Origin: a virus
Taxonomy: Duplodnaviria > Caudoviricetes
Virus record (IMG/VR): IMGVR_UViG_3300030104_006170
DNA: 64,000 nucleotides
Strand: one strand, 5' to 3'
Position numbers and translations under genes: made by a program. Shown here piece by piece: positions 247-62,154 of the stretch (position 1 is the stretch's first letter; every line of letters starts with the position of its first letter). The notes below the pieces were generated by a model that was given only the letters and a program-made list of their open reading frames with translations, searched no databases and had not been told where the DNA came from.

Positions 247-858
247 ATGAAAAATATTATAACAACTGTACTCATTATTGGTTCATTATTTTTTTTATTC
301 TTCCAAAATTATTATGATGATAGAATAGAAGAAATGCACCAACAAAACACTTCTAAGATAGATTCTATCAATACTTACATAGATTCTTTACATGAAAATA
401 TTGATGTTTTACACCAGTATCTGGACTCTTTACCTTTAGGTTCCCCACTAGATACTTTAATTATTTCATCTCACTATGGATGGAGAAAATTACCCCTTTA
501 TGGTGGCTGGAGAATGCATAGTGGTACAGATTTTTATGCTGCTTGGAGTGATACTGTTTACTCTACTGGTCACGGTAAAATAACCATGTCTGGTTGGAAC
601 TTGGGTTATGGTAGACAAATAAAAATATCACATTGTAGTGGGTATGAATCTAGTTACGCACATTTGTATAGACTATTTGTTAAAGTTGGTGACTCTGTTA
701 GGTTGGGTGACCCTATAGCTAGAGCTGGAAATTCTGGTGCTGTTACAGGTGCACATTTACATTATGAAATAGCTAGATGGGGTGAAAAAATTAATCCTAT
801 GGATATATTAAGTTACTCTCTAACCGGGTTGTCCGTAAGCTCTACCTCTTCTCAGTAA
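247..858 (+). CDS. M23 family metallopeptidase (peptidoglycan hydrolase) with N-terminal membrane anchor
   Basis: HSGTD (HxxxD), YAHL, HLHYE (HxH) motifs; N-terminal hydrophobic helix; 3' end overlaps convergent gene by 39 nt. Confidence 0.9.
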   Translation: MKNIITTVLIIGSLFFLFFQNYYDDRIEEMHQQNTSKIDSINTYIDSLHENIDVLHQYLDSLPLGSPLDTLIISSHYGWRKLPLYGGWRMHSGTDFYAAWSDTVYSTGHGKITMSGWNLGYGRQIKISHCSGYESSYAHLYRLFVKVGDSVRLGDPIARAGNSGAVTGAHLHYEIARWGEKINPMDILSYSLTGLSVSSTSSQ

Positions 859-2400
859 TTTTCCTTGAGTCCAAGCTTCGTAGTTTGGTCCTAAACTATA
901 TACGAACTGTCTTCCTTGTCTTTCCATTTTAACAATACCAGAATCTTTAATTGCAGCAAAGAACATATTGTTATGTGCTCTAGGTCTAGGACGACCTAAC
1001 ACATCTTCATAGAATTGATTTGGTGTACTTCTTGGATTTTCTTTTAAGTAGTCTGTAAATAATTGTGTCATACTACCTTTTTTAGGTGGGTACTTAAACG
1101 TATAAGAAGACACATATGATTGAGCGTCCCAAACCTTATAATCTAGACCGGTATATTCTTTTAACTCTTCATTTCCTAGTGCTTTACTAACAAGAGGTAT
1201 GTATATGTTTCTAAGAAATGCTTTTTCATTAGCGAATTGTCTATAGTCATTAGTGTCAGTACTTAGATAATTCCATCGATATTCTGGTCCAGGACCCATA
1301 AATTCATTATTTAAATCTTCTACTGGTATAGTCTTGTGATACTCTATTGCTGGTTGGCCTAGGTCATCATCGTCTGTTCTAAAATACACATTCATATCAT
1401 TACCGTTAGGAAATGGTGTTGCTAGAAGTTCCACTCTTGGGTCACTTCCTACCCATTCCCAATCATCATCACCCATTCCTATCTCTAGTGTCCATTTTCC
1501 TGTTGGTGTACTTATAGTTATTGGTCTTGGTAGGTTTTGTATGTATGTTTCTACATTTGATTTAAACTGTTCTAAAGTGAAAATAGACTCATCCATAGTG
1601 GGAACTTCTCCTATATATTCTTCTTCAATAGCATTAGTAAGTTCTAAAGGTAATAGAGATTCAATAGCTTTAACTGTACTACCTTCTAATCTGTTGTCTG
1701 CTCTATCATACCATTCCTCGTCTCCATTCCATTTTTTAAATAATGCTATTTTAAAGAAATCACCCACATCTTTAGTTTTATCAATTATATAAAAGAGTAC
1801 TCCTCTTTTTGAATAGTCTTCAAAATGTTTAGGATAGTCCTTTGATGCTGTACACCATTTTGTTGATGAACCATAGTAACACGAACCTTCGTAGGTATTT
1901 GGTTTAACTAATAACCATCTATCATCTTCATATAGTTTATCTACACCTTCTTTTGCTTCCTTTTCTTTTTCTTTTTTGGTTTGGATGGCGTCCATTTCAT
2001 CCATTACTCTTTCTAGGATTTCCAAATAATCATAAGAATCTATATTCTTTGGTGAGGTAGGTATTTTACTATCAGGACCAAAATTAACATCCATGTTCAT
2101 TATAAACGCTGGGGTTAACCTATCTAAATTTTTGTGAAATCTTTTAACTACAGATGTTATTTCGAATGGTGCGGTTGATTCTTCATTAATATATGTCTTA
2201 ATCATCCACATAAGATATTTGTTATTACCTGAAGGGTCCTCACTAACAAAATGGTCTAACACACCTTGTAAATTAGTGTATTCACCGACCCCAGCTGGAT
2301 TACCTGGTTCTGCAACAGGCCAAGACCCAACAGCATTTTCAAAATACTTTTGTGCATCCTCTACTCTTCCTTCTATTAATATTTTACCTAATCCTTTCAT
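820..2400 (-). CDS. phage protein of the 'YEDD...SCYYG..TKWCTASK' paralog family (copy A)
   Basis: Shares DP..NKYL.W and YEDDRWLLVKP...SCYYGSSTKWCTASK with 4307..6070 and 57853..59271; N-terminal KILIE|GRVED. Confidence 0.75.
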   Translation of the reverse strand: MKGLGKILIEGRVEDAQKYFENAVGSWPVAEPGNPAGVGEYTNLQGVLDHFVSEDPSGNNKYLMWMIKTYINEESTAPFEITSVVKRFHKNLDRLTPAFIMNMDVNFGPDSKIPTSPKNIDSYDYLEILERVMDEMDAIQTKKEKEKEAKEGVDKLYEDDRWLLVKPNTYEGSCYYGSSTKWCTASKDYPKHFEDYSKRGVLFYIIDKTKDVGDFFKIALFKKWNGDEEWYDRADNRLEGSTVKAIESLLPLELTNAIEEEYIGEVPTMDESIFTLEQFKSNVETYIQNLPRPITISTPTGKWTLEIGMGDDDWEWVGSDPRVELLATPFPNGNDMNVYFRTDDDDLGQPAIEYHKTIPVEDLNNEFMGPGPEYRWNYLSTDTNDYRQFANEKAFLRNIYIPLVSKALGNEELKEYTGLDYKVWDAQSYVSSYTFKYPPKKGSMTQLFTDYLKENPRSTPNQFYEDVLGRPRPRAHNNMFFAAIKDSGIVKMERQGRQFVYSLGPNYEAWTQGKLLRRGRAYGQPG

Positions 2401-3050
2401 ATTAGTTCTTCATATTTTTCAGATACTTTATCCCAATTAACTATTTTCCAAAAGTTATTTATATATTTTTTTCTATCAGACATATAATTTAAATAATAAG
2501 CATGTTCCCACACATCTAAACCTAATAAAGGTTCTCCCATATTATCCATCAAAGGATTGTCTTGGTTGGGTGTACTTACTATTTTAAGTCTACCGTTCTT
2601 TAATACTAACCAACACCAACCTGAACCAAATACCTTCGCAGCTTCTTCATCAAACTGCCTTTTAAAGTTATCTAAACTACCAAAGTCTTTATTTATCTTT
2701 TTCTTAAGTTCATCGGAAAGTTCTGTTTTATCTGGTGTTATATAGTCTCTAAAAAATAAACTGTGATTATAGTAACCTCCAGCATTATTTCTCGTAAATG
2801 TATCATAGTTCTTAATTCCTCTAATAATCTTTTCAATGTCTTTGGAAGGATTTTTTCTTTTTGATAGTGCTTCATTTAGTTTGGTGGTGTAACCTTTATA
2901 GTGTTTGTTGTAATGTTCCCACATAGTTTCATAACCCACAAAATCTTTTACAGAGTTATAATCATAAGGTAAACTCACTCTTCTAAAGAACGTTTTTTTA
3001 GCTTCAGTTAAGAAACTTTCTCTTAATATGTTTTTAATTAAATCTTTCAA
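2397..3050 (-). CDS. sodA: Fe/Mn superoxide dismutase (Mn-type signature) with ~18-aa N-terminal extension
   Basis: LPYDY, HYNKHY, NAGGYYNHSLFF, FGSGWCWL, TPNQDNP, DVWEHAYY. Confidence 0.93.
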   Translation of the reverse strand: MKDLIKNILRESFLTEAKKTFFRRVSLPYDYNSVKDFVGYETMWEHYNKHYKGYTTKLNEALSKRKNPSKDIEKIIRGIKNYDTFTRNNAGGYYNHSLFFRDYITPDKTELSDELKKKINKDFGSLDNFKRQFDEEAAKVFGSGWCWLVLKNGRLKIVSTPNQDNPLMDNMGEPLLGLDVWEHAYYLNYMSDRKKYINNFWKIVNWDKVSEKYEELI

Positions 3051-3331
3051 AACTTCTTAATTTTTAATTTTAAATCACCATCACCTTTTATTACTCTATG
3101 ATAAACTCCCATTGGTATGGTGAATTTACCTTCCATTATAAATGGTAACTCATTGTCAAACTGAAACATCCAATTAGTTTTACCAACAACCTCTACTTCT
3201 CTATCTTCTCTATCACGATGCCATACTAACTCATCGTTATCCACGTCTTGAGAGAATGTTCTTTCGAATATACCTTGTTTTATATTTTCTTTAAAAGGAA
3301 ATTCCATATTACCACCATTGTCCACCACCAC
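3047..3331 (-). CDS. small cupin-fold phage protein (probable start MEFPF)
   Basis: ELVWHRDREDREV ... FTIPMGVYHRVIKG cupin-like His motifs. Confidence 0.65.
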   Translation of the reverse strand: MVVDNGGNMEFPFKENIKQGIFERTFSQDVDNDELVWHRDREDREVEVVGKTNWMFQFDNELPFIMEGKFTIPMGVYHRVIKGDGDLKLKIKKF

Positions 3332-4304
3332 CGGATAATCCTAGAGATTTTGCGTATCTAGGTAATCTACACGACCAATATCCAGCCTTAGTTTTATCAT
3401 TCTTTTGTTTACATTTATGTCTTGCTACAAAACTTTTAACAGCACCTCTGTTATTAATCTTTGCTCTTAATCCTGAAGAACCAAAAGATACTTTCTTAAC
3501 GTTTCCTGATTTTGGGTCTTTAACATAAACATAGTATGCTTTGGAGCCACCTCGTTTAGGTTTATTGAGTGTAACTTTTTTACCTCTGTATTCAGCCTCA
3601 TTAATCATAGGTAAATCTAATGGTACTTGTTCACCTTCGTAAATACCATAACTACCTAAGTCTGTTCTCAGTAATTCTCTTTCATCATGATTAACATATA
3701 ATTTAGTTTCATTTACAAAGTCCCGTGCGTCATTAATAAATTTTAAATGGCCTTCACTACCATGTCTAAAAATACATTCGTTTAAAGGTATCTTTTTATC
3801 TAAATGATAGTTTACAGCTTCATTTTTTGATTTTTTACCCCATTTCTTTCCTTTTCCCTTACTTTTACATCCTGCTGGTGTAGGTCTACATGCTGGGTAC
3901 TTACTTCTTTTCTCTCCTGATTTTCTACCACAAGATTTATATCCACCTTTTCCATCAGGTGCATTACAGTCTACCCAACCACCAGTACTTCCTTTAGCAC
4001 CTTTTCTACCAAACCAATCTTTTAAACTTGATTCAGAACTAGGTTTTTTGGTTAACTTTCTTTTTTCAACTAGAGTCTCTTCCTTTGTACTATTACCCCA
4101 GTTCTTAGCTCCAACTTTTCTACATTTAACTAAAGCACCGGAAGCATAAGCTGAAGGCCATACTTTATACCTACTTTTAACTTTATGATAACAAGCATCT
4201 CTTTTAGCTTTTTTCTTCTTTTTTTTCTTTTTCTTAGCTTCGTCTACCTCTTGAGATAGTTGTTCTTTTAATACTTTCCTTATTATTTCTTTAATGTTTT
4301 TCAT
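3309..4304 (-). CDS. highly basic, Cys-containing modular protein; probable internal head/DNA-binding polyprotein
   Basis: K-rich modules (KRDACYHKVKSRYKVWPSAYASG; EAEYRGKKVTLNKP...GYWSC) resembling T4-like phage proteins, separated by xxE|A/K sites. Confidence 0.6.
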   Translation of the reverse strand: MKNIKEIIRKVLKEQLSQEVDEAKKKKKKKKKAKRDACYHKVKSRYKVWPSAYASGALVKCRKVGAKNWGNSTKEETLVEKRKLTKKPSSESSLKDWFGRKGAKGSTGGWVDCNAPDGKGGYKSCGRKSGEKRSKYPACRPTPAGCKSKGKGKKWGKKSKNEAVNYHLDKKIPLNECIFRHGSEGHLKFINDARDFVNETKLYVNHDERELLRTDLGSYGIYEGEQVPLDLPMINEAEYRGKKVTLNKPKRGGSKAYYVYVKDPKSGNVKKVSFGSSGLRAKINNRGAVKSFVARHKCKQKNDKTKAGYWSCRLPRYAKSLGLSGGGGQWW

Positions 4305-4306
4305 AA

Positions 4307-6070
4307 TTAATTTGTTCTATAAATATAATACCATTCACCGTCAAATGAAATTTCGTTTTCATTTCCATCATAAGATGAAAGAGTGTGTCCTCTACCATCA
4401 GATTCTACAACAGCTTCAATAAAGTCATCCTCATCAATAAAATCTTTTATACTTTCTTCCATACCAAAATCTCTAAGGAAACCAACTGGGTCATCTCTTA
4501 CCTCATCCATTCTACGTTCAACATAATTATCTTTTGCCTCCTCCGTATATTCATAACTATCGTCATCCATTTTAATATCTTCTTTTAATTCTTCTAACTC
4601 ATCTATACGGTCTTGGGCCACCTCTCTTTCTACCTCACTATCTAGTTCTTCTAAGTCTTCCTGTAGGTGTCCTATTTCTTCGTTAATTTTTTCTATTTCA
4701 TCTTTAGAGTGTTGGGTTAGTTCTCTGTCGTCATCATCCAAATAATCTTCTGGTGCTTCACTCATATCATCCCAGAACCAATCCTCTGCATAATCTGCTA
4801 CTCGGTCACCATCAACATGCCATTCCATAAAACTTGGATTGAATCCTTCATAACCTATATCATCAATTAAACTTCTTGTTCTTTCTATTGCTGCTTCGTC
4901 TGCTGCTTCATCCAACCCTACTGCATACTCAGCTCCACCATATTCAAATTCATACATCCCATAATAGTCGTATAGTGGAATTATATCATAAACACTTTCT
5001 GCATTCTCTAAGTCCTCTTCTAAATTATTCAAATCTTCACCATAAGCCTGTGCCTGGTCACCATTAGGGTCTGCAATTACATCTGGGTCGTTTTCCATTC
5101 GAGACCTAAGGTCTTCTATTGCACTCCTGAATTCCTCTTTTGTTTCACCTTCCCATTCTCCTTCATCTATTAACCATTCTTTTAATGCGTTTGCCGCTAA
5201 ACCTCTAGCATCGGTATTTTCTGGATTCCATTCATCATTTTCTCTTCTTTCTTGTGCTTCAATATCTTGTTGGATTCTTCTAAGTCTTTCTCTTTCTCTC
5301 ATTTCTTCATTACGACCTAGTCTTTTTGCTTGTAATTCTTTTTCTTGTTTAATTCTTTCTTCAAATTTAACCCCAAAATGATTTCTTATATCCTCTAACA
5401 TTTTTTTGTTTTGGATAATAGTCATAATGTTTGTAGTGTCAGTTATTGGTTTGTCTTGTACGTCCCAAAAATCTTCAGTAAGGCCTGCTATCTTTTTATT
5501 TAATGCAACTTTATAATAAGGACTGGACGTTGGTAGGGTTTTATCAATTATATAATATAATTCTCCCCCACTTTTATAGTTTGAGAAGTGGGAGTCAGTG
5601 TCTTTTGATGCTGTACACCATTTTGTTCCTGCACCATAATAACAAGAAGACTTATGTGTTTTAGGTACAACAACAACAAATCTATTATCTTCATATATTC
5701 TATCAACCTCATCACTAATCTCTACAGTTCTTCTAGCTGTTTGACCTAGTTTTTGTAAGGTATCAAATAGTTGGTCAATATTTTTATATTGATTTAAATC
5801 TTTTATTTTTAATCTTTGGTTTTGGGTATCGAATTTTGATACTGCTAGTAGTATTTCTTTTAGGTTGTGTATTATTTCATCACCCTCTACATCAGTAGGA
5901 CTCCAATTTTTAGTTATCCAATCTAGATATTTGTGATTAGGGTTAATACTTGCACTCCCTGGTACTATTTCATCATAGTATATTTTTTCTATTTGGGGTG
6001 ACTCACCAGATATACGTTTAGTATAAACATCTTCAACTCTACCTTCTAATAAAATTGTTTTTAAACTCAT
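4307..6070 (-). CDS. 'WCTASK' family protein (copy B) with long acidic C-terminal region
   Basis: KTILLE|GRVED start; NHKYLDW; YEDNRFVVVVP...SCYYGAGTKWCTASK; D/E-rich C-terminal half. Confidence 0.75.
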   Translation of the reverse strand: MSLKTILLEGRVEDVYTKRISGESPQIEKIYYDEIVPGSASINPNHKYLDWITKNWSPTDVEGDEIIHNLKEILLAVSKFDTQNQRLKIKDLNQYKNIDQLFDTLQKLGQTARRTVEISDEVDRIYEDNRFVVVVPKTHKSSCYYGAGTKWCTASKDTDSHFSNYKSGGELYYIIDKTLPTSSPYYKVALNKKIAGLTEDFWDVQDKPITDTTNIMTIIQNKKMLEDIRNHFGVKFEERIKQEKELQAKRLGRNEEMRERERLRRIQQDIEAQERRENDEWNPENTDARGLAANALKEWLIDEGEWEGETKEEFRSAIEDLRSRMENDPDVIADPNGDQAQAYGEDLNNLEEDLENAESVYDIIPLYDYYGMYEFEYGGAEYAVGLDEAADEAAIERTRSLIDDIGYEGFNPSFMEWHVDGDRVADYAEDWFWDDMSEAPEDYLDDDDRELTQHSKDEIEKINEEIGHLQEDLEELDSEVEREVAQDRIDELEELKEDIKMDDDSYEYTEEAKDNYVERRMDEVRDDPVGFLRDFGMEESIKDFIDEDDFIEAVVESDGRGHTLSSYDGNENEISFDGEWYYIYRTN

Positions 6071-6071
6071 A

Positions 6072-6647
6072 TTAATGAAATATTACTGCACCATTATTAG
6101 AAGCTACCCTAAATGCTTCTTTCCAATCTTTATATTTAAATTTGAACCAATCGTAGGTTTCACCATCAATTTCATAGTCATCAAACTTTAAATAAAATCT
6201 ATCTAACTTTTTCATTATTGGTTCTTCATACTTAACAAAATCATTATATAACTTTTGTGAAGCTATGGGACCTATCACACCATCCGCATCACTAAAATTA
6301 ATTAGTTCACCAAATGGTACTTCACTATAACTAACACCAGAATCTATTTTATTCCAAACTTCTTCATCACTCATTCCTAAAGCTACTCTTGCTAATAATC
6401 TTCTCCATTCATTGTAACCACTATAAGAACCAGCCCTATGACCAAACTCTTCACCTTTTGATACTACACTACCATTAGGTAACCCTTCACCTTGTTCTGG
6501 AAAGTTGGATGATTGGTATAGATTCCACACACCACCAGGAAGATTTTGTTTTTCTTCCCAGTCATAATATTCATTAGACCAAAGTTCAATACCTTCTGGT
6601 ATTTCTATTGGTTCTATTTCAGAAATTGCTGTGATGTCTAAACCCAT
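6072..6647 (-). CDS. hypothetical phage protein (MGLD... type)
   Basis: Clean ORF, GSYSGYNEWRRLLA motif, TATTTAT motif upstream at 6661-6667. Confidence 0.6.
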   Translation of the reverse strand: MGLDITAISEIEPIEIPEGIELWSNEYYDWEEKQNLPGGVWNLYQSSNFPEQGEGLPNGSVVSKGEEFGHRAGSYSGYNEWRRLLARVALGMSDEEVWNKIDSGVSYSEVPFGELINFSDADGVIGPIASQKLYNDFVKYEEPIMKKLDRFYLKFDDYEIDGETYDWFKFKYKDWKEAFRVASNNGAVIFH

Positions 6648-6688
6648 TTGTGTTTATTTAATAAATATTAGGAAACTGTAGAATGTTA

Positions 6689-7729
6689 TTAAGTATTTGT
6701 GAATGTAAGTGTACCACCATATACTCTTGTTGCGGAGTTATCATCACTTAGCCTTATCTTAATCCATACATAATATGTACTAGCATTAAATTTACTAGCA
6801 GATAGAGTTATAGCTTTTCCTAAGGCCCCTCCTGTCGCCATTGTTATAGTTGGTGAACCTACACCATCAAAAGGTACCGCATATACCGTTACTACACTTG
6901 CAACAACTTGACTCGAATTAATTGTTAGTGTCTTTTTGTTTAGAGATGAACCTACTGGTAATGATAATTGTGCATGACACTCACCCCCTGCAGGTATTGT
7001 AATATAACCTCCAGCATAATTACTTGTAGTGTTCATCATATAAAAATCTTTTGGCATTAACATATATGTTGTATTTGAACCTTTGTATCCCTTTGCGTTT
7101 GTTGCTGTTGCTGCGTTCCCTGTTGTGTCTTGATTACCACTAGTATTAACTCCCGGTAAATTTATATTTGCACTACCATCAAATGATACACCACCTATTG
7201 TTCTAGCTGTTTCTAATATAGTAGCTTCTGCAGCTGTTCCAGATGTATCTTGGTTTCCAGTTGTGTTTACCCCTGGTAAATTTATGTTTGCAGAACCGTC
7301 AAATGAAACTCCTCCTATAGTTCTCGCTGTTGCTAATACTGAAGCTGATGCTGCTGTTCCTGTTGTGTCTTGATTACCGGCAGTATTTACACCTGGTAAA
7401 TCTATATTTGAGTCACCATCAAATGATACACCACCGATTTTTCTTGCGGTGGCTAGTTTTTTTGCAAATTCTACCATACCACCAGCACCTGTTGCGGTTG
7501 TATTAGTCGTAATTAACCCCTTTAATTCAGTATCTGTATAATCCCTTAGTGAGTCTATATCCTCAGATAGATTTTGTACAGTATATATGATAGATGCAAG
7601 TATAGGGTTATCGTCTGGTTCAGTACTAATGATATCATGTTCTGCACTATCAAACTTAGCTTTCAGTTTTAATTTATCATTACCTGAAAGACTATGGATG
7701 TTTCCGGATTTTTTACCACTTAAAGCCAT
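6689..7729 (-). CDS. tail-fibre-like protein with three 40-aa repeats
   Basis: 3x ATARTIGGVSFDGSANINLPGVNT.GNQDT.G.AA, a typical phage fibre repeat. Confidence 0.75.
   Translation of the reverse strand: MALSGKKSGNIHSLSGNDKLKLKAKFDSAEHDIISTEPDDNPILASIIYTVQNLSEDIDSLRDYTDTELKGLITTNTTATGAGGMVEFAKKLATARKIGGVSFDGDSNIDLPGVNTAGNQDTTGTAASASVLATARTIGGVSFDGSANINLPGVNTTGNQDTSGTAAEATILETARTIGGVSFDGSANINLPGVNTSGNQDTTGNAATATNAKGYKGSNTTYMLMPKDFYMMNTTSNYAGGYITIPAGGECHAQLSLPVGSSLNKKTLTINSSQVVASVVTVYAVPFDGVGSPTITMATGGALGKAITLSASKFNASTYYVWIKIRLSDDNSATRVYGGTLTFTNT
7100..7460 (-). repeat. three tandem 120-bp coding repeats
   Basis: ggtaaa.....atttg...cc.tcaaatga.ac.cc.cc recurs at an exact 120-bp offset (lines 7141, 7261, 7381); boundaries approximate. 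Confidence 0.85.
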
Positions 7730-7744
7730 ATTATTTATTTTTTA

Positions 7745-10189
7745 TTAAGTTAATGTGTATTCAAATTCTAATATTACATTCATAGACAACCATGTATCGG
7801 CACTGTTTGTTCCTTGGAAAGCTAGGAAGAATGTATCAAACTGTGAACAATTTTGGTCTATGGAAATATCATATATAAATCTTTTATCTCTATTGTCTGG
7901 TAGAGTTTTAGTAACTCCTGTAACTGCCGCCCAGGATATTGAATCTGAGTCATCCACTACTGGTGATTTTGCTAAATGAATATTCCAATCTTGACCTACT
8001 TCACTATTGGTTGTGTTTGCTCCTTGTATAACCATTCTAGTTAATTTACAAGCATATGGTACTGTAAAAAAAGTATTTCTATAAGAACCATAATAGTTGT
8101 ATGCTGTACCTATTGTCCCACTTCCCGTATCTACATTCCAAAAACCACTACTATCTAAACCACCAGTTGTACGATTAAATCCAGCCCAATTATTATTCGC
8201 TAATAATTTAATAGCTCCAGTAGTTTGAATAAAGAATCGTGCGTTAGGATAACTTATGTTCCCATTAAAATACGTGTTTCCTGTAACACCTAGGTTACCA
8301 CCAAATCTAGCGTCTGTCAATCCTGATAGTACACCATTAATATTTGTGTCACCACTAATACCAACTCTACCAACATTAGTCATTTCTGTTGATGTCATTT
8401 TTATTTGGTTGGTTGCAGATTGTGTTATATTTAAATCACCATTTAAAGCTAACAGAGTAGTAGTTCCTTGAATGTATGTACTAGAATCTACCCACTCTAC
8501 TTGTTTAGCTGAACTAAACCTTAAATGGTCATCAAGGAATGTTTTACCGGATATACCTAGGTTTCCTCCGAAGCTTGCATCTGTTCTACCAGAAGTCACA
8601 CCACTAATGTTTACTCCATTGTTAAATGTTGCGGTTCCTGCATCTGACATATCAAGTAATAAGGCATCTCTCGTAACACCAGCATCTTGTCCTCTAAATA
8701 CAATATCATTGTTATTACCCTCTGACTTGATGATAAAATCTGAGGAGTCTCTTTTGAATCTACCAAAGTCTGTTCCATCATCACTCAATATAATATCGGC
8801 ACCATTTGCATCTAATGTGATGTCTCCCTCAACATCAAGTGTAAAGTCCCCAGAAGAAATATCTAACTGATTATTTGCTAATGACATATTACCAACAACA
8901 AAAGCACCACTTGTATATGTATTACCACTAACACCTAGGTTACCTTGTATATGTGTATCCCCACTCATTCTTACCACGGTAGTTACGTTTGACCCTGAGG
9001 GTGATATACCCGTACCATCGGTGGTAGCTGTCCAATAAACATCTTGGTTTGTAATTGCAGAACTAGCAAATATATCTAGTAAATCTGTTGTACCACTCAT
9101 AACACTAGTACCTGATACTTGGAAAGTTGGTGAACTACCTCCTAGGGTTTGGAATTGTAAGGGTTCTCCACTAGAAAATAATAGTCCCTCATCAGTTATT
9201 GTTACATTACTACCAACATAATTTTCGGTTAAAAACATATTGGCTCCAGCAACAGAATCTACTGTTAGGGTGAATGTTTCCGCCCCATCAGAAAATTTTA
9301 CTTCATCTCCTGATGATAAATTAGCTGGAGATGCTCCATTACTAAATAAAACTCTATTAAAACCATTAGCGAAAGTTACGTTACCACCACCTAAATCATA
9401 TATTTGAAATCCTAGTCCACCCTTAACAGTTAATATAGCGTCTGGGGATAGGGTTTTTATACCTGTTCTACCACTAGTAGCACTTACAAAAAATGTGTCA
9501 GTTCCCGCAGTTATATTATCCCCAACAATTAAATTATCATTTACAGTTAAATTATCTTGTGCTATAACTTCAGAGGTTGTGTCCCCCAAGTATAGATTAG
9601 GTGACGTAATATATAAATTTCCAGTATTATTGTCTACTGTCCCATGACTACCATTGTGATAAATTTGTAAATCACCATCAGCACCAAATAATGCTTTATC
9701 ATTATCCCCTAATTTTATATCTTGTTGAAAGTAGGTTTGGGTGGATTGAAAAAGTATTGTCGTTCCTAATGAACCGTTTAAATCTACATTTAGGGTTTTC
9801 CCATGTACCACATTTATATCATCTCTTAGAGTTACAGCGGTGGTATCACCTGAAGGACTGACACTACCATCGGTATTGGCAGACCATTTTAAACCTGGAA
9901 TGGACACTGTGTTCCCACTAGTAGTATTTAATTCTATAGTTGTACCATTAATACTACCTCCTGAGATGTAGATATCACCTGGAACTACTGCACCCCAACT
10001 TGCATTTCCGGAAGCGTCAGATAATAAAACATATCCATTAGCTTGATTGCCGTCAACATATCTTAAATTACCATTTACAATAAAAGGGTTTGGGGTTGTA
10101 CCGTCTAATTTTTGTAGGTTACCACTTGCGTCAGCTTGAAGTACTAACTGGTATGTGTCTTTTATTTTTGAATTTCCTAAGTCCGCCAT
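7745..10189 (-). CDS. tail fibre/baseplate-associated structural protein
   Basis: G/S/T/N-rich, many SGxT/TGNT motifs, GQIYHNGS fibre motif; shares a 292-bp cassette with the 3510-aa fibre. Confidence 0.7.
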   Translation of the reverse strand: MADLGNSKIKDTYQLVLQADASGNLQKLDGTTPNPFIVNGNLRYVDGNQANGYVLLSDASGNASWGAVVPGDIYISGGSINGTTIELNTTSGNTVSIPGLKWSANTDGSVSPSGDTTAVTLRDDINVVHGKTLNVDLNGSLGTTILFQSTQTYFQQDIKLGDNDKALFGADGDLQIYHNGSHGTVDNNTGNLYITSPNLYLGDTTSEVIAQDNLTVNDNLIVGDNITAGTDTFFVSATSGRTGIKTLSPDAILTVKGGLGFQIYDLGGGNVTFANGFNRVLFSNGASPANLSSGDEVKFSDGAETFTLTVDSVAGANMFLTENYVGSNVTITDEGLLFSSGEPLQFQTLGGSSPTFQVSGTSVMSGTTDLLDIFASSAITNQDVYWTATTDGTGISPSGSNVTTVVRMSGDTHIQGNLGVSGNTYTSGAFVVGNMSLANNQLDISSGDFTLDVEGDITLDANGADIILSDDGTDFGRFKRDSSDFIIKSEGNNNDIVFRGQDAGVTRDALLLDMSDAGTATFNNGVNISGVTSGRTDASFGGNLGISGKTFLDDHLRFSSAKQVEWVDSSTYIQGTTTLLALNGDLNITQSATNQIKMTSTEMTNVGRVGISGDTNINGVLSGLTDARFGGNLGVTGNTYFNGNISYPNARFFIQTTGAIKLLANNNWAGFNRTTGGLDSSGFWNVDTGSGTIGTAYNYYGSYRNTFFTVPYACKLTRMVIQGANTTNSEVGQDWNIHLAKSPVVDDSDSISWAAVTGVTKTLPDNRDKRFIYDISIDQNCSQFDTFFLAFQGTNSADTWLSMNVILEFEYTLT

Positions 10190-10224
10190 AGCTAAAATAT
10201 AATTTATTGGCTACAAAAGTGAAC

Positions 10225-10689
10225 TTAATCTTGCGACCTTAACTTTAGTAGGAGTTTTCTAAGGTCTTGTTTGGTAAACTTTGACTCTTTTATGGTAGGT
10301 TTAATTACTTTTTTCTTTTTAATTACCGGTGTTTCGTTATTAATTTTTACGTTTACCTTAGCTTTATTTTCTTTAATAATATTGTTTGAGGGTTGTTTTA
10401 CTTCTACTGTTATACTTTTTGACTTTTTAAGTTCAAAATCAGAATTCCAAGGATTAAAGTACATATCATCAGCAATAACTTCTAATTTCATCTCACCACC
10501 TTCATTTAACATATTTAATTTTGGTAGATTGATTCTACAATTACCATCAGAAGTAATTTCACCATTAAAGACTAGATTTAAGTCGTTACCTTCTAAGATA
10601 ACTCTTGCGAATGCCTGAGAAAGACTAGCTCCTTCTAGTTGGATGTCACATTCGAATATGTTTTGTTTGTCGGAATATAAAGTATACAT
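10225..10689 (-). CDS. hypothetical protein (beta-rich N-terminal domain, basic tail)
   Basis: ORF in the structural cluster; TATTTAT at 10706-10712. Confidence 0.6.
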   Translation of the reverse strand: MYTLYSDKQNIFECDIQLEGASLSQAFARVILEGNDLNLVFNGEITSDGNCRINLPKLNMLNEGGEMKLEVIADDMYFNPWNSDFELKKSKSITVEVKQPSNNIIKENKAKVNVKINNETPVIKKKKVIKPTIKESKFTKQDLRKLLLKLRSQD

Positions 10690-11013
10690 TTATTTTTCTT
10701 TATTAATAAATATACTGATTTCTGGCTTTTCCAGGAATTTCTCTATTATTTTGAAGTCACCAGCTCTTACTCTAATGTCTGGTCTAAAATATTTAGTCTC
10801 CTCATACTCCTCACCTTTAATCTTACATAATAATTTTATAAACTTTTGTTGTGTTTTTTTATCTTTATCACGTAATCTTTTAAATTGTTCACTATACCCA
10901 CCACCTTGTATTGCTGGTATTACAACTTCTATGAGTAAACATATCTCAGACCAAGTAAAATCAGTTTTGTCCCATCTAATATCTCCCTCTTCCCACGTAA
11001 TACAATCACTCAT
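10690..11013 (-). CDS. hypothetical protein
   Basis: Abutting ORF in operon; W-rich N-terminus. Confidence 0.55.
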   Translation of the reverse strand: MSDCITWEEGDIRWDKTDFTWSEICLLIEVVIPAIQGGGYSEQFKRLRDKDKKTQQKFIKLLCKIKGEEYEETKYFRPDIRVRAGDFKIIEKFLEKPEISIFINKEK

Positions 11014-11194
11014 CTTTTTTATCTTTTTTAAACCAGTAGTCTATTACATTCTGAAAAGAACTTAAAAACCCACCTATAATAATAAACAAAAGGTCACGGG
11101 TTGTCCCCATGACCTCTTGAGTAAACACAAAATAAATTAGAGCAGCGAATAAAGCTAAAAATATTATTGTTATTATAGTTCTAGCTAAATCCAT
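11006..11194 (-). CDS. small two-TM membrane protein (holin-like)
   Basis: Two hydrophobic helices and a charged C-terminus KKDKKDE. Confidence 0.55.
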   Translation of the reverse strand: MDLARTIITIIFLALFAALIYFVFTQEVMGTTRDLLFIIIGGFLSSFQNVIDYWFKKDKKDE

Positions 11195-11200
11195 TTTAAT

Positions 11201-11359
11201 TTACATTTTACATCTTGTACTGCATTTATATGCCATGTAAGCTACAATTAGAGCTGCTGGAATAGCCACCATCCAATCACTTTTAGCAAATTCCCAACCA
11301 GCAAAACCCGCTAGTAAGTAAGTACCATAACATTTTAAACATTTTAATCCTTTTTCCAT
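11201..11359 (-). CDS. 52-aa membrane peptide with Cys pairs at both ends
   Basis: Hand-translated MEKGLKCLKCYGTYLLAGFAGWEFAKSDWMVAIPAALIVAYMAYKCSTRCKM; fills the gap in the operon. Confidence 0.5.
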   Translation of the reverse strand: MEKGLKCLKCYGTYLLAGFAGWEFAKSDWMVAIPAALIVAYMAYKCSTRCKM

Positions 11360-11363
11360 AATT

Positions 11364-13769
11364 TTAAAAATTAGTTTTTAACGAAATTATCACATTTCTA
11401 CCAGGAGCTGAAATACCTGAAGCGAATGTTCTGTAATGTTGGTCTAATATATTTTCTAGACCAAGCTGTAGTTTAAGGTTTTCATTAAATTCATACTGTA
11501 AAGACATATTTAATGTCCACCATGATGGGAACCCCTCTATGGTCCCTAAATCATCATTGTCTACCCCACTAGAATTCATATCCTCAATATCTTTACCTAA
11601 AGTGTATATACCCCAAATTTTATATTCTATTTTATCTTTTTTAAATCTTAATAAAGATTTATTAAAAGCTGGAGGAATATGACCTAAAGGTTCTTCATTA
11701 GACACATCCCAACCTTTCTGCCATGTAAATGACTCCTCAAAAAATAACCATGGAGTTATTTTTGATTTCAAACCTAGAGACCAACCATATATATAAGCTT
11801 CAGGTGAATTCATTAGAGTCTGAACATTAACTTCTTCATACTCATAGAATTCGGTATACCCTAAATCTTTTTTAACAATAACATCTTGTAAATGAGTGTA
11901 ATAAAAGTTACTAGTTACTTGTAGGTTTTCCCATTTTTTAGTAATACTCATCTCTCCATTATACGCATACTCTGGAGTTAAGTCTGGGTTAGGTATTACC
12001 ATATCACCCCTTTTTACAAATACTTTTCCGTAATCATCTATGTTAGGTGCTCTAAATCCTGAAGATGCGACCCAATCAAATTTCCAGGTGTTTGTGGGTT
12101 TATATATTAGGTTAACATTACCTGTGAGTGCTCCATTATTAAATTTAATATGGTCCGTAACAAATACTGGGTCTGTTTCATTAAATAACATTTCTCCAAA
12201 TACTTGGGAGTATCTTGCACCTACATTCCATACAAAGTATTCGTTAACTTCTTTTTTATAAGAACCGTATAAAGCAGCTGTAGATAATCTACTTCCACCT
12301 GATGGGTACCTTGTTTGTGTACCTTCAGTTGCTGTTGAAAGGATATTATTATTTGTTAGTTCTAAACCATAAACTAACTTACCTAATGTGAAATCCCAAT
12401 TCAAACTTGTTACGTGAGCATCTATATATGTATTATTGTATTCCTCTGATTGGAATTTTCTAGTAATTCTATCTTCCTCTATAAATTGATATGCTACTGT
12501 TAGATTACTTCCGTCAAAAAATTTACTATCCTTATATGAGTTAATATCTAATGATGACATTAATCTTGTTTGTGGTCCGTATGACCATTCACTCCATTTT
12601 AATTCTCCATTTGTATAGTCTTGTAAGTTATCGTATCTTGGAATATTAGATGTTGTTGAAAATTGGTTGTTAAGTCTAATAAAAATATTTTCGTTTGCTC
12701 TCCATGAGGTGTTATTTAATATATCTACTTGTTTATAACCGGTACCTACTTGAATGTTTGGGTCTTCATTAACTACCATTTCATCGTTGTCCACATAGTG
12801 TGTTATTAAACCCCAATCATTGTATCCATGTTGTCTCCATTTACCCATCCTTAAATCTCCAAATTGTTTAACGGTAACAGATAAAAAATTAGCAACTTTA
12901 TCCCAACCTATATTATTACTAACATGAAAAGAGTATTCATCTGCCGCAGTCCCAAATCTAACTTCAGCATTTGTCTTATAAAAAGTTTTATCGTTTTTAC
13001 TAAACTCTGGTTTTTTAGTGTAAAAATGTACAACCCCTCCTAAAGCATCACTACCATATATTGTTGATGATGGTCCAAAAACTACTTCTACTATTTCTAA
13101 AGCATTTGGGTCAACAGTTATACTATTTTGTACGTGACCTGAACGATATATTGCATTGTTCATTCTAACACCATCAACTACTAGTAAAACTCTATTTGCT
13201 TCAAACCCTCTTATTATGGGTGAACCCCCACCTAGTTGAGATTTTTGAATAGTAACTCCTTGGGTTACTGTCAATAGGTCAGCTGTAGTAGATGCATTTG
13301 TATTTTTAATTTGTTTAATATCCACTGATTGGATTTGGTAGGCTACATTCTCTCTTTTTTCTCTAAATTTACTAGCTGATATAACTACATCATCTAAATA
13401 TTGTGTGTTTTGGTGTAGTAATATTACATAATCTTTTTGAGCCATTTCATTTTTAGTTATTCTTCTTGTTTCATAACCAATGAATGAAATTTCTAACAAT
13501 ATGTTATCTGGAAATTGTGATAAGTCTGCTTGACCCTTTATGTCAGTAGTTGTTCCTTTTCTAATAGAATCTTTATATGTAACATTACTACCTTCACTAA
13601 TCAATAATTGTTTTGTTACTATATTCGCAAATGGTATTGGTTCTAATGTTTGTTGGTCTTTTAAGGTTAACGTTTGTGCTAAACCTTTACCTGAACCCAA
13701 TATTAGTAAAAAGAGGATTAATAAGTAACCCCCAAATAATTTTAATTGTATTTTTGTCATTTCACTCAT
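11364..13769 (-). CDS. TonB-dependent outer-membrane receptor (Bacteroidetes type, haem/haemoglobin-receptor-like)
   Basis: Signal peptide, carboxypeptidase-regulatory-like N-domain (EPIPFANI), plug motif RGFEANRVLLVVDGVRMNNA, IEVVFGPSSTIYGSDALGGVV, terminal GLENILDQHY...GRN...F. Confidence 0.92.
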   Translation of the reverse strand: MSEMTKIQLKLFGGYLLILFLLILGSGKGLAQTLTLKDQQTLEPIPFANIVTKQLLISEGSNVTYKDSIRKGTTTDIKGQADLSQFPDNILLEISFIGYETRRITKNEMAQKDYVILLHQNTQYLDDVVISASKFREKRENVAYQIQSVDIKQIKNTNASTTADLLTVTQGVTIQKSQLGGGSPIIRGFEANRVLLVVDGVRMNNAIYRSGHVQNSITVDPNALEIVEVVFGPSSTIYGSDALGGVVHFYTKKPEFSKNDKTFYKTNAEVRFGTAADEYSFHVSNNIGWDKVANFLSVTVKQFGDLRMGKWRQHGYNDWGLITHYVDNDEMVVNEDPNIQVGTGYKQVDILNNTSWRANENIFIRLNNQFSTTSNIPRYDNLQDYTNGELKWSEWSYGPQTRLMSSLDINSYKDSKFFDGSNLTVAYQFIEEDRITRKFQSEEYNNTYIDAHVTSLNWDFTLGKLVYGLELTNNNILSTATEGTQTRYPSGGSRLSTAALYGSYKKEVNEYFVWNVGARYSQVFGEMLFNETDPVFVTDHIKFNNGALTGNVNLIYKPTNTWKFDWVASSGFRAPNIDDYGKVFVKRGDMVIPNPDLTPEYAYNGEMSITKKWENLQVTSNFYYTHLQDVIVKKDLGYTEFYEYEEVNVQTLMNSPEAYIYGWSLGLKSKITPWLFFEESFTWQKGWDVSNEEPLGHIPPAFNKSLLRFKKDKIEYKIWGIYTLGKDIEDMNSSGVDNDDLGTIEGFPSWWTLNMSLQYEFNENLKLQLGLENILDQHYRTFASGISAPGRNVIISLKTNF

Positions 13770-13793
13770 TTATAAGTGTATTTGTGATTTAAG

Positions 13794-14285
13794 TTATTTA
13801 CCCATGTTAAATCCTACCATAATAGATATTCTAGCTCCTGAATCTTCGTCTTCACCCCAAACACTACCATTTGGGACAAATGCTAAATTTACAGGAAAGT
13901 TTAAGTCTCCTGATTTGAAGTTTTTACCTATTGTAAATACCATATTGATTCCTGTCGCGGATAGATTTGGTCCTACAGCGTATTCCATTCCTTCCCCAGT
14001 TCTCACACCAACTAAAGATGATATAGATGGTAGAAACATTTGTCTTTCCATTCCTCCCACAACTACAACCCACTCTACTAATCCCGCAATATCTCCGTTG
14101 TCAGCAAATCTACTTTCCCATTGCCAACCATACTGTGTAATCATACTAGTTTCTAATTCATCAGCCATGAATCCTGGCGTTAAAAAGGTAAGTCCAACTC
14201 TAGGTCCCGCTAATCTATCTATTTGTTGGGAGTGGCTTACTAAAGAGCATAAAATTAATAATGTTATTAATAGTATATTTTTCAT
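13794..14285 (-). CDS. exported protein, probable small beta-barrel outer-membrane protein
   Basis: Signal peptide MKNILLITLL..SHSQ; alternating beta strands; C-terminal ISIMVGFNMGK. Confidence 0.6.
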   Translation of the reverse strand: MKNILLITLLILCSLVSHSQQIDRLAGPRVGLTFLTPGFMADELETSMITQYGWQWESRFADNGDIAGLVEWVVVVGGMERQMFLPSISSLVGVRTGEGMEYAVGPNLSATGINMVFTIGKNFKSGDLNFPVNLAFVPNGSVWGEDEDSGARISIMVGFNMGK

Positions 14286-15620: not shown

Positions 15621-15629
15621 AGTTTTATA

Positions 15630-15719
15630 TTATTTAGTTAACTCATATAAAAACATAGCTAATAAAAGGGGTACACCTGTTAATAATAATGTTGTTATAA
15701 TTGTTTTGATTATTCTCAT
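15630..15719 (-). CDS. 29-aa single-TM micropeptide
   Basis: Hand-translated MRIIKTIITTLLLTGVPLLLAMFLYELTK; ATGA overlap with the upstream stop. Confidence 0.5.
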   Translation of the reverse strand: MRIIKTIITTLLLTGVPLLLAMFLYELTK

Positions 15720-17056: not shown

Positions 17057-17060
17057 AAAT

Positions 17061-17444: not shown

Positions 17445-17450
17445 AGTATT

Positions 17451-57852: not shown

Positions 57853-59271
57853 TTACTGTATCGAAGCTTCTGCTTCTTCAGCAGTCTTGTAATCACCTTG
57901 TTTATCAACGTAATTAACTACTACTTTTTGTCCATTTTGACATTCTCCAACTCCAAAGGACTGGTCGGGTTGAGTTTTAATTAATACTAATTCACCACAA
58001 GCTGCCTTTTCCATAATTTTGTGTGGTATAATCATTTTACTATTATTTTTAACATTTAGTACTTCTAGGTTTGGTAGGTTAACTATTGATTCTGGAATAT
58101 GTACTAAATTAGGATTGTTAGGGATAGATATAAATTGTAAGTTTTTTAACTCCCCTACCTCATCTGGTAACTCACTTAACATACCTTCGATGTGTAACAT
58201 TTCTAAATTTTTAAATCTTGTGATATCATCGGGTAATCTAAAAGCTGGTGTTTTTTGGTCTTTTTGACCGTATCCTCTACTATTTGATATCTCAATATCT
58301 AATCTTTCTAAAGTTTCTGGTAAAGCTTCAAAAAACTCATCGAACCCATAAATAGAAATATATTTAGATGCTGTATCATTAGGATATCTTAGTTGTACTT
58401 GTTTACCATAATCTTTACCCATAAACGTTGCAAACTTTTCTTTAAAGAATGGTTTAAGTTCTGGATATGTAGCAAAAAACGAACCTAAATCAATACTTCT
58501 ATCCTCTGCATTATAAAATGAATTACTTTCAAAGTGGAACTGATGACTTCTATTTTCAGCTGGGGCTTTACCAGCGTCTTCTTTATACATCATCATATAT
58601 AATGGACCTTGTTTGGAGTAGTGGTCATAGTAATTAGAAGTTTTTGATGCTGTACACCACCTAGTTTGTCCACCCCCGTAATGACAAGAAGCTTCTTTAG
58701 ATTTAGGTACTAAGATTAACCATTTATCATCTTCATAAACTTTATCAACATCATCTCTTAATCTTTCTGCTTTAGTCTTAGTTATCTCATCCTTACTGAC
58801 TTGGTAGTCTTTTACATTGTCATATAAGTCCTCTACGGATTTTATTTGTCCTATATCTTTTTGTCCTTTATATTTTTTTGTTTTCTTTAGGTAATGGAAT
58901 TTTTCTAAGTCCTCACTAACCTTATAAAGGTCTTCCATAAATAATTCTTGTAGTCTCTCCAACGTTTGGGTCCATTCTGGTGTCCCATAGTCATGTTCTG
59001 CGTCTGCCTTTTGTTGTAAACCTAACCATTGTTTAATTAACCAGTTAGTATAAGCTCCAACTTTTTCAACCTCTCTAGTATCTTCATCAGCTGTGTTTGT
59101 ACCTTCAATTTTAGATGTGGGGTCTGCCAACATTAAGGATTTTAGAAGCTCTTTTTCCATTTGAGCTTTCTTACCTTTCTTTTTTGGTTGGGTATACTTT
59201 TTCATAAGAACATCGTAACGACTGTCCTCAATAATTAAATTAGTTAAGATTTCCTTAAAGTTAAAGGCCAT
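57853..59271 (-). CDS. 'WCTASK' family protein (copy C) with C-terminal leucine-rich repeats
   Basis: YEDDKWLILVP..ASCHYGGGQTRWCTASK; LPDDITRFKNLEML..LPDEVGELKNLQFI..IPESIVNLPNLEVLNV; leader KEILTNLIIE. Confidence 0.8.
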   Translation of the reverse strand: MAFNFKEILTNLIIEDSRYDVLMKKYTQPKKKGKKAQMEKELLKSLMLADPTSKIEGTNTADEDTREVEKVGAYTNWLIKQWLGLQQKADAEHDYGTPEWTQTLERLQELFMEDLYKVSEDLEKFHYLKKTKKYKGQKDIGQIKSVEDLYDNVKDYQVSKDEITKTKAERLRDDVDKVYEDDKWLILVPKSKEASCHYGGGQTRWCTASKTSNYYDHYSKQGPLYMMMYKEDAGKAPAENRSHQFHFESNSFYNAEDRSIDLGSFFATYPELKPFFKEKFATFMGKDYGKQVQLRYPNDTASKYISIYGFDEFFEALPETLERLDIEISNSRGYGQKDQKTPAFRLPDDITRFKNLEMLHIEGMLSELPDEVGELKNLQFISIPNNPNLVHIPESIVNLPNLEVLNVKNNSKMIIPHKIMEKAACGELVLIKTQPDQSFGVGECQNGQKVVVNYVDKQGDYKTAEEAEASIQ

Positions 59272-60326: not shown

Positions 60327-60542
60327 CTAAGATTTTTTATTTTTAGTTCCCCACTTAGAATTTACCCAGATTCTTTCATGGATATAATATAGTACGAACT
60401 TGGTGCATAGTTCTAACGCACCAATTTTTAACCCCATTACTGGGTTGCCAGTTATTATCCACCCTAGAGCCATTGTATCCAATGTTCCTACGATTCTCCA
60501 ACTGATAGCTTTGAGAATACTTCTTGTTTTACTTACGTACAT
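60327..60542 (-). CDS. DUF2061 family membrane protein
   Basis: RSILKAISWRIVGTLDT...ELCTKFVLYYIHERIW. Confidence 0.85.
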   Translation of the reverse strand: MYVSKTRSILKAISWRIVGTLDTMALGWIITGNPVMGLKIGALELCTKFVLYYIHERIWVNSKWGTKNKKS

Positions 60543-62154
60543 TTTCTGTGATTATATTATTAATAATATTATTAATAATTCTATTTGTATAGTTTTCGTT
60601 AACTTCTTTTTCTTCTTGATTAAATGGTAGTCTTGGGTTGGTTACGTACTCTAGGAAATCTTCTAATTTAACATTGTCCATTCTATCCGTATTGGTTGAG
60701 TTGTGACTATCATCCTTAAATGATACTGTTTCGTCTTTGGAGTTATAATTTCCGACTGTTATATTGGTCAATACGGTAGACTTACCATCACTAGTTTTCC
60801 AATTATGTACATCTGTTCTGTTTGAGAATCCAGGATTCCATCCTGTTGCTTTTTTAAATCCTAATTCACCAAGTGTTTTAAGAAAACTTTCTCTTCTTTT
60901 AACTCTATCCATAATCGTGTCTACCCCATCTTCTTCTATATTATCCAACATGTTTTTAAAAGCTGCATTCATATCATTACTTCCTTCATCATCTACATCC
61001 CACGCATCATACCAACCATCATATAAATTAGGTAACCCATTTAACTCTATTTCACCCAAATCAGCAAAATTTTCAACACTCTTTGTACCAATAACTTGTA
61101 ATAATTGTTTCCATGTTATATACATTTCGGTGTTTCTCCCTCTTTCATCCCAGTCAAATACTTTTGCTTCATCTATCTCGTCTTTAGTAGCTTGTGCTCT
61201 ACTTCTCCAAACTGCACAACCTAAACTACTTAACCACTCATCAGCCATATCATCTGCTTCTATTGGAAAGTACTTCTCAAGGAAATCATATACGGTTCCT
61301 TCATCATGTTGCAATTCCTGTTCTGTAAATTTTGGTTCTCCCACTAACTCTCTAAGATTTTGTAATCGTCCACGGTTTTCTGGGGTTAAATAACCGTTCA
61401 TATAGTTTAATTCCTCTGTATCCATTTCCTCACAATCATCATAATAACCACGGTAACCCATAGCTGCGTTATATGCCCAGTCATCATCCTGACTTAAATC
61501 TAAAAACTTATCTTTAAAAGTTTCGTCGTTGGCGATTATTAAGATTCCTTCTCCATCAGGCATGATTCCTATTTCATCGTCATTCATATTATCAAAAAAC
61601 CAACTATCTGTAGATACTGTAGTGTTGTCGTTACCTTCAAACTTTTCCCAGTCCAGATTTTGTCCTTTCTCACCTCTTATCTCATCATAAACTGCTTTTG
61701 CAAAATCATTCTTTTCGGAAAATTGTTTCATTTCCTTTTCAGTAAAAGGCATTTCAAATTTTAATCTTTCTTTGAGGGAGTATGGGATGTTTAGTTTTTC
61801 TATTAGTGTGGGTTTGTCACTAAAGAATTCTTTTGCTTCTTTTTTCTGGTACCAATTTATATTTAACGCTGCGTCTCTAAGTGGGTCAAAAAGAGCATAT
61901 TCCCCACCAAATCTTAAAGGTATTTTACTTTTGGTGTCGTGGACTATCCCTGCTTTGTTTTTATCCTTTTCTATGATTATATAGGTCACCCCACCACTTT
62001 TAAACGCGTTTACGGTAGCTTCTTTAATTTTTTCATCCTTACACCATTGGGGTGCTATAGAACAAATAGATGCAATATTATAAGGTAATACGAGTTCATA
62101 TTTATCATCCTCGTATACAACTCTTTTATTTACCTGTTCGTTTAACATATTCAT
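60529..62154 (-). CDS. divergent 'WCTASK' family protein (copy D), acidic
   Basis: MLNE|Q start; VVYEDDKYELVLP...IC...QWC; C-terminal helix EVNENYTNRIINNIINNIITENVRK. Confidence 0.6.
   Translation of the reverse strand: MNMLNEQVNKRVVYEDDKYELVLPYNIASICSIAPQWCKDEKIKEATVNAFKSGGVTYIIIEKDKNKAGIVHDTKSKIPLRFGGEYALFDPLRDAALNINWYQKKEAKEFFSDKPTLIEKLNIPYSLKERLKFEMPFTEKEMKQFSEKNDFAKAVYDEIRGEKGQNLDWEKFEGNDNTTVSTDSWFFDNMNDDEIGIMPDGEGILIIANDETFKDKFLDLSQDDDWAYNAAMGYRGYYDDCEEMDTEELNYMNGYLTPENRGRLQNLRELVGEPKFTEQELQHDEGTVYDFLEKYFPIEADDMADEWLSSLGCAVWRSRAQATKDEIDEAKVFDWDERGRNTEMYITWKQLLQVIGTKSVENFADLGEIELNGLPNLYDGWYDAWDVDDEGSNDMNAAFKNMLDNIEEDGVDTIMDRVKRRESFLKTLGELGFKKATGWNPGFSNRTDVHNWKTSDGKSTVLTNITVGNYNSKDETVSFKDDSHNSTNTDRMDNVKLEDFLEYVTNPRLPFNQEEKEVNENYTNRIINNIINNIITENVRK

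Follow-up and report, generated by a model that had tools for sequence, protein, structure and literature searches.

Why do otherwise unrelated proteins of one phage begin with the same kind of short N-terminal leader? The question is raised by a 64,000-nucleotide stretch of viral DNA (Caudoviricetes; IMG/VR record IMGVR_UViG_3300030104_006170), referred to here as the window. In it, an Fe/Mn superoxide dismutase (SOD), a deoxyribose-phosphate aldolase (DERA) and several other proteins start with a short segment ending in a hydrophobic residue, any residue and Glu. The initial annotation of the window likened these leaders to the capsid targeting sequence (CTS) of phage T4, and the T4 facts it used check out: the prohead protease gp21 cuts after Glu in L/I-X-E, and a CTS of 10-19 residues brings proteins into the prohead (PMC9026906, PMC5694885). 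In T4, the internal proteins, Alt and gp24 have N-terminal propeptides of this length, which target the core and are then removed (PMC9026906; PMC5694885). The leaders of the window are best explained, with a probability of roughly 60%, as T4-type capsid-targeting propeptides that would be cut by a prohead protease, the mature protein being kept in the head and probably leaving with the DNA. All of the N-terminal sequences quoted in the initial annotation are present in the window, and eight of its ten examples hold; its observation and its interpretation are each upheld in part. These eight tagged proteins, SOD and DERA included, are probably carried in the virus particle.

The SOD gene (2397-3050, minus strand) encodes its leader at 3003-3050, which reads MKDLIKNILRE/SFLTE/AKK (slashes mark proposed cuts) and in which the second Glu, residue 16, is invariant. 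The Pfam domain Sod_Fe_N begins at residue 26, equivalent to profile position 6, which places the start of the domain near residue 20. Cellular SODs begin at column 34-37 of the alignment, at or just past the conserved Glu, and lack the extension. For most of the 80 top-ranking bacterial loci, the match to the window protein begins only at residue 22. The conserved Glu is present in 12/12 leader-bearing SODs of the alignment. The window gene uses TTG as its start codon, which overlaps the stop codon of the gene upstream in the sequence TTGA (window 3047-3050), and the same leader starts with ATG in 8/9 relatives and with GTG in the other (L004). These nine relatives keep the leader despite synonymous changes and one in-frame insertion. 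The site hydrophobic-x-E/[AV]KK is invariant among them, even in copies that are 49% identical, and the first Glu is lost in one.

Close relatives found in IMG/VR by way of the SOD (86-90% amino-acid identity) lie on contigs of 298, 232, 137 and 107 kb. The window is assigned to a marine jumbo phage lineage because the 298-kb relative, G001, which is 93% complete by CheckV estimate, matches it at 65-87% nucleotide identity in rearranged blocks. Two window proteins, of 526 and 297 amino acids (aa), belong to families that are abundant in ocean metagenomes. Their homologues lie on contigs as long as 424 kb, and many of these contigs come from Tara samples.

The DERA gene (47958-48764, plus strand) begins with MKDMITEDIRRIKELIRLTE/GDN, the leader occupying 47958-48017. 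A phmmer search of PDB matched solved aldolases (1.4e-31) and aligned query residue 25 with chain residue 6 of 6d33, and the fold begins at about residue 20. The leaders are 16 aa (SOD) and 20 aa (DERA) long to the proposed cut, and since cellular SODs and solved aldolases start later, the earlier claim that both are additions ahead of the normal N-terminus is borne out. Seven related DERA loci, with four distinct sequences, follow the pattern M[IL]NE[EQ]IKRI[KQ]xLMxI[RK]E/Q, in which the leader has 17-18 residues and ends in I-[RK]-E. The DERA of G001 has a 108-aa N-terminal domain in place of the leader. The tagged proteins were also described as captured host enzymes, a label that suits SOD and DERA but no other leader protein.

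A very basic protein of 331 aa (gene 3309-4304, minus strand; leader 4263-4304) begins with MKNIKEIIRKVLKE/Q, followed by a further VDE/A site. Its mature form has a net charge of +47, like a T4 internal protein, and TATTTAT lies 21 nt upstream of its gene. Orthologues of this protein keep a leader and swap its type, which can be MKNIIKKILRE, MRDIIKRILEE or IKLTESQVKKLMMF..LDE/KKK. The 297-aa protein (gene 48764-49657, plus strand; leader 48764-48796) begins with MKNLIRKILKE/E. Residues L4, I5 and E11 are the same in all of its 120 closest homologues, and a hydrophobic residue always occupies positions 8 (I/V) and 9 (L/I), while the polar positions drift. The initial annotation called this protein NDT-like. 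Atlas leads of about 0.85 to Nuc_deoxyrib_tr clusters point that way weakly, no PDB sequence match was found and the AlphaFold2 (AF2) model, with a predicted local distance difference test score (pLDDT) of 44, is unusable; the label is no more than a weak lead. A 372-aa protein (gene 36803-37921, plus strand; leader 36803-36841) begins with MKLFNNLHNIILE/QTTPW, and its G001 orthologue keeps the leader as MKLIQTVSALLVE/KTTPW. TATTTAT is found 15 nt upstream of this gene.

Three further leader proteins, of 526, 587 and 472 aa, turned out to be paralogs (587-aa against 526-aa, E 3e-24). The description of the tagged proteins as unrelated thus fails for three of the eight that hold. The 526-aa protein (gene 820-2400, minus strand; leader 2371-2400) begins with MKGLGKILIE/GRVED, and the 587-aa paralog (gene 4307-6070, minus strand; leader 6044-6070) with MSLKTILLE/GRVED. 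The 472-aa paralog (gene 57853-59271, minus strand; leader 59227-59271) begins with MAFNFKEILTNLIIE/DSRY and has C-terminal leucine-rich repeats, whose matches are below the Pfam cut-offs. The G001 orthologues of the latter two begin with MLLTE/N and MNMGITDILKKLVLE/QSRY, respectively. The leader is 7-14 aa long in about 90 distinct homologues of the 526-aa protein (40-94% identity), and in nearly all that are full-length it ends in hydrophobic-hydrophobic-x-E/GR. The AF2 model of the 526-aa protein has a pLDDT of about 85, with residues 1-8 below 50. No fold match to this model was found in PDB, and the AlphaFold DB matches are uncharacterised entries together with weak PcfJ-like ones. The paralogs share an S-C-Y-Y-G..T-K-W-C-T block and an N-terminal half that is weakly PcfJ-like, and the 526-aa protein has a possible winged-helix C-terminus. 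The family is very common on ocean jumbo-phage contigs. One indirect link to virions is a homologue in phage PA5oct, whose annotation describes a virion protein detected by electrospray ionisation tandem mass spectrometry (ESI-MS/MS). Within the 90-140 kb region of PA5oct, leader-like N-termini occur in 2/24 proteins detected by mass spectrometry and in 4/29 undetected ones, which gives no signal. Since this region consists largely of tail genes and PA5oct has no established cleavage code, the comparison is uninformative rather than negative.

Taken across these families, the data indicate that selection acts on the leader peptide itself, because the SOD leader persists despite synonymous changes, its Glu is invariant, and the leaders of the 526-aa and 297-aa families are conserved. 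Judged from the orthologues, the leaders are also modular: their type is exchanged among basic-protein orthologues, and DERA gains or loses its leader.

The frequency of the motif was measured in the first 25 aa of the open reading frames (ORFs) against 2000 shuffles that kept the composition of each N-terminus. The loose form [IL]xE, as originally proposed, is at chance level in the window, where it occurs in 23/69 ORFs against 18.9 +/- 3.2 expected and 255/2000 shuffles reach the count. It turns up by chance also in bS21 and DUF932, from which the initial annotation had reported the leader absent, and in other proteins. A strict form, [ILVM]xx[ILVM][IL]xE, describes an amphipathic leader ending in hydrophobic-hydrophobic-x-Glu. 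It occurs in 9/69 window ORFs against 1.8 expected, a count that 0/2000 shuffles reach, so the contrast with shuffled N-termini survives in this narrower definition. When window proteins are divided into 25-aa bins, 13% of N-terminal bins contain the strict motif and at most 2% of later bins do. Since the strict motif was defined post hoc, it was tested on G001, where it occurs in 20/303 ORFs against 6.1 expected (0/2000 shuffles). The loose motif is also in excess in G001, with 97 against 72 expected in the same 303 ORFs (0/2000 shuffles). No excess of the strict motif was seen in a bacterial control of 36 AT-rich loci with 629 ORFs called in the same way (8 against 9.5 +/- 3). Its count is not significant in Flavobacterium phage 11b (3/64 against 1.4), whose protease is not of the S77 type. 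Within the 98-135 kb region of T4, the strict motif is found in 4/55 ORFs, three of which encode gp68, gp24 and Alt, proteins that gp21 is known to cut. The leader enrichment is therefore specific to N-termini and to the phage lineage.

A scoring matrix was trained on eleven G001 leaders, whose source proteins are mostly not orthologues of the window leader proteins. It gives 19-22 bits for SOD, the basic protein and the 297-aa protein, and less than 8 bits for the other window leaders. The 297-aa leader scores 21.6 bits, and one of the training leaders, MKKLIRNILKE, differs from it at two positions. These scores set apart a tight class of basic leaders with the pattern M-K-x-L-I-K-K-I-L-K-E; the remaining leaders vary more and have just the ending in common. 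A second motif tried as a class of its own, E-I-x-R-I-K-x-L, was rejected, as its regular expression matches only DERA and a few internal sites. The motif TATTTAT, to which a late-promoter role is ascribed by inference, lies within 60 nt upstream of 12/29 leader genes and 73/343 others (odds ratio 2.6, p 0.02). The association is of modest size. A Sec-type signal peptide has a basic N-region followed by an unbroken hydrophobic core of at least about 10 residues, a feature that the leaders do not have. They carry a charged or polar residue every 2-3 positions, and the true signal peptides of the window, e.g. MKKLLLILTLLPLLTFPSFSQ, differ from them.

The prohead protease that a T4-type system would need was found in relatives of the window. 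Peptidase_S77 (PF03420) is encoded in G001 (90 bits) and in a second relative, G002 (89 bits), above the Pfam cut-off in both; the protease of the window's own genome was not seen. In G001, where the genes around the protease were inspected, the head genes are in T4 order: portal (PF07230), core proteins, protease, scaffold and a gp23-type major capsid protein (MCP, PF07068). Proteins of 243 and 143 aa stand at the places of T4 gp67 and gp68, the scaffold has 493 aa, and the ELNHP and SSRG catalytic motifs of the protease align with T4 gp21. The scaffold begins with MSNKSLLESALIE/AQQIE, and its SALIE/AQQIE site resembles QLIAE/AQKID of T4 gp22. The MCP has a looser I-x-E site, HLINE/A, at residue 60, near the T4 cut at residue 65. 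Sites of the leader motif are also present in the protease and the 243-aa core protein. A matrix built from the window leaders finds 26 matches of at least 10 bits in G001, 11 of them N-terminal and 15 internal. Of the 15 internal matches, three are in proteins of the head module, namely the scaffold, the protease and the 243-aa core protein; the module makes up 2.4% of residues. The excess of N-terminal matches suggests about 20 tagged proteins per genome. Most of the candidate tagged proteins of G001 are without a Pfam family, and one is a fusion of an M23 peptidase and a lysozyme. A full-length Hsp70/DnaK-like gene (G001 252120-253997, L029) adjoins the virion-gene region, and its product could help to fold or load head cargo.

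The proposed course of events follows T4. A tagged protein would be made late in infection, and its short amphipathic, often basic leader would dock it on the strongly acidic scaffold core during prohead assembly. Because the G001 scaffold is very acidic (net charge -52) and the tightest leader class is basic (+3 to +4), electrostatic docking is suggested. A gp21-type (S77) prohead protease would then cut past the Glu of hydrophobic-hydrophobic-x-Glu, and the mature proteins, among them SOD, DERA, the +47 basic protein and the three PcfJ-like paralogs, would stay in the head. By analogy with T4 internal proteins and Alt, they would probably exit with the DNA at infection. A wider reading, held tentatively and at somewhat under even odds, extends this to a widespread oceanic lineage of T4-related jumbo phages. 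In such a lineage, a portable tag code with interchangeable leader classes would turn any captured gene into preloaded cargo, and each virion would deliver, along with its DNA, a kit of about 20 enzymes and binding proteins. The cargo would include SOD, DERA, peptidoglycan hydrolases and a possible nucleoside transferase; T4, by comparison, has few internal proteins.

Several points weigh against the capsid-targeting explanation. The steps of docking, cleavage, packaging and ejection are inferred only, and no reason is known for packaging DERA. The head module is seen in relatives only (SOD 90% and 86% identical), and in G001, one of these head-module relatives, the orthologue of the 526-aa protein is only 56% identical. 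The alignment of the G001 MCP to that of T4 is ambiguous around the cut site. Because the conserved block of the 526-aa family continues past E/GR into GRVEDA, and so spans the proposed cut (E/GRVEDA), its conservation need not reflect a cleavage site. The leaders are heterogeneous, the tight class consisting only of SOD, the basic protein and the 297-aa protein. The TATTTAT association with leader genes is modest, and the strict motif was defined after the data had been seen. This last point, together with the chance-level count of the loose motif in the window and the fact that the most frequent residues are K, I, L, N and E, raises the question of whether AT-rich coding and the calling of ORFs produced the pattern as a by-product without any common function. 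Composition-preserving shuffles, however, never reach the strict count in the window or in G001, the identically called AT-rich bacterial ORFs show no excess, and the leaders are kept through synonymous changes and with ATG starts in relatives. A by-product is thus largely refuted and very improbable.

Alternatively, the leaders could share an amphipathic helix that acts in the cytoplasm and is not cut in the head, for example as a binding tag for a phage Hsp70/DnaK, as a ClpXP N-degron used with a phage ClpP, as a membrane-association helix or as a docking helix for an enzyme complex. ClpP is encoded in the window, Hsp70 lies beside virion genes in G001, and DERA with the possible NDT forms a metabolic-looking operon. 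Hsp70-binding segments are, moreover, hydrophobic cores flanked by basic residues, which the leaders resemble. Such a helix leaves unexplained why the Glu is invariant with a hydrophobic residue two positions before it, why the same motif is present in scaffold, core protein and protease (and more loosely in the MCP), and why the leaders are like T4 gp21 substrates. For Sec-type signals, the leaders are too short and too charged. The cytoplasmic helix is accordingly judged unlikely. Another alternative differs from the capsid-targeting explanation in its last step only: the prohead protease would cut the tagged proteins, which would serve as core or structural helpers or act inside the particle, such as an SOD guarding packaged DNA, rather than being delivered as effectors. 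T4 gp67, gp68 and gp24 carry similar propeptides and yet are no injected effectors, and in the lineage, the genes for the three paralogs and for the 372-aa protein are conserved and core-like. SOD, DERA and the +47 basic protein, on the other hand, resemble T4 cargo of the Alt/IP type and not scaffold parts, and helpers of this kind are considered improbable.

Two of the ten original examples are weak. The 90-aa ORF at 22898-23170 (minus strand; leader 23117-23170), which begins with MNQITEKQLRKIRHLLFE/A, has no homologue in G001 or 13 other loci and is overlapped by an opposite-strand ORF of similar length. The 541-aa protein (gene 60529-62154, minus strand; leader 62137-62154) begins with MNMLNE/Q, which scores 2.3 bits and aligns within a 3602-aa G001 protein. 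Parts of this G001 ORF (4258-15066, L017) are separate genes in the window, at 40076-42292 and 60529-62154, and correspond to residues 1-233 of a 738-aa protein and residues 5-438 of the 541-aa protein, respectively. The 3602-aa ORF may encode a polyprotein cut at Glu sites, or it may reflect gene fusion or fission. Leader-like C-termini were also observed, in the 541-aa protein (..RIINNIINNIITE/NVRK, 60529-60560) and in the G001 gene at 291800-292312 (..KKLIKRILKE/QGIT). T4 Alt and gp21 are likewise processed at the C-terminus (PMC9026906).

The window as a whole has a GC content of 33% and is nearly gene-saturated. Its genes encode, in addition to the Fe/Mn SOD, ClpP, ribosomal protein bS21, an ATP-dependent ligase, UvdE, a DUF932 protein, a TROVE/vWA protein, tail-fibre-like proteins and many Sec-type secreted proteins. 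Among its best-conserved genes is that of a DUF2828/DUF7788 (TROVE-vWA-like) protein (55439-56872), with 87% identity to the G001 orthologue. Bacteroidota-type signal peptides occur in runs of proteins at 11364-22855 and 52658-55160, which include a 1603-aa repeat protein. These runs are kept in G001 and are unusual for a phage. A 3510-aa ORF at 25651-36183 has a GC content of 37%, above its surroundings, and its matches in G001 are short only.

If the tags act as in T4, the proteins that uncultured marine giant phages carry in the head, and probably inject, can be predicted from sequence. The predicted list holds an antioxidant enzyme and a nucleoside-sugar enzyme, neither of which is known as phage cargo. 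This would widen the view of what a phage brings into the cell ahead of gene expression, and would supply natural short peptides with which proteins could be loaded into T4-type capsids. The T4 capsid targeting sequence was reportedly described by Mullaney and Black in 1996, and its principle is said to have been known since then. Given that precedent, and since a review already suggests that T4-like phages in general could use CTS loading (PMC9026906), the gain lies in scope and cargo and not in a new mechanism.

Three known systems can be compared with the leaders. The cargo-loading peptides of encapsulins are similar in being short, portable peptides that bring enzymes into a shell of HK97 fold; the likeness is functional only. 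Encapsulin peptides are usually C-terminal and no protease removes them, and the shell contains no DNA and is not a virion. The giant phages phiKZ, 201phi2-1 and SPN3US have gp21 homologues that cut propeptides from head and ejection proteins after S/A-X-E (PMC5694885, PMC9026906). The lineage described here is likewise one of jumbo phages with an S77-type protease, many head-internal candidates bearing Glu sites and paralogs sharing N-termini. The propeptides of those phages are mostly longer than 100 residues and have a small residue at P3, whereas the leaders here are of T4 length with I/L at P3, and the head genes here, unlike theirs, match T4 Pfam families directly.

T4 itself is the nearest parallel. 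Its CTS and gp21-cleaved propeptides are found on IPI, IPII, IPIII, Alt, gp24, gp67 and gp68 (reviewed in PMC9026906). Several T4 N-termini in NC_000866 resemble the present leaders, namely MAKINELLRE/S (gp24), MEGLIE/A (gp67), MLLIPE/T (gp68) and MLKEQLIAE/AQKID (gp22). Like the T4 CTS, the leaders are N-terminal tags of 7-20 residues that end in hydrophobic-x-Glu on otherwise unrelated proteins, in a lineage with a T4-ordered head module and an S77 protease, and one cargo candidate is very basic. Literature searches turned up no earlier account of tags of this kind on either SOD or DERA, nor in jumbo phages from the sea. Unlike in T4, the candidate cargo includes SOD, DERA and PcfJ-like paralogs. 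An estimated 20 or so proteins per genome are tagged in G001, compared with a handful in T4, and several leader classes occur that are swapped between orthologues. The leaders fit a T4-type CTS in several features that sequence can show: G001 and G002 encode an S77 protease, which in G001 stands in a T4-like head module, a short extension precedes the fold, sites of the same type lie in the G001 scaffold, core protein and protease (and more loosely in the MCP), and the Glu and the hydrophobic residue at P3 are conserved in almost every leader-bearing homologue checked (the SOD, 526-aa and 297-aa families and the DERA relatives).

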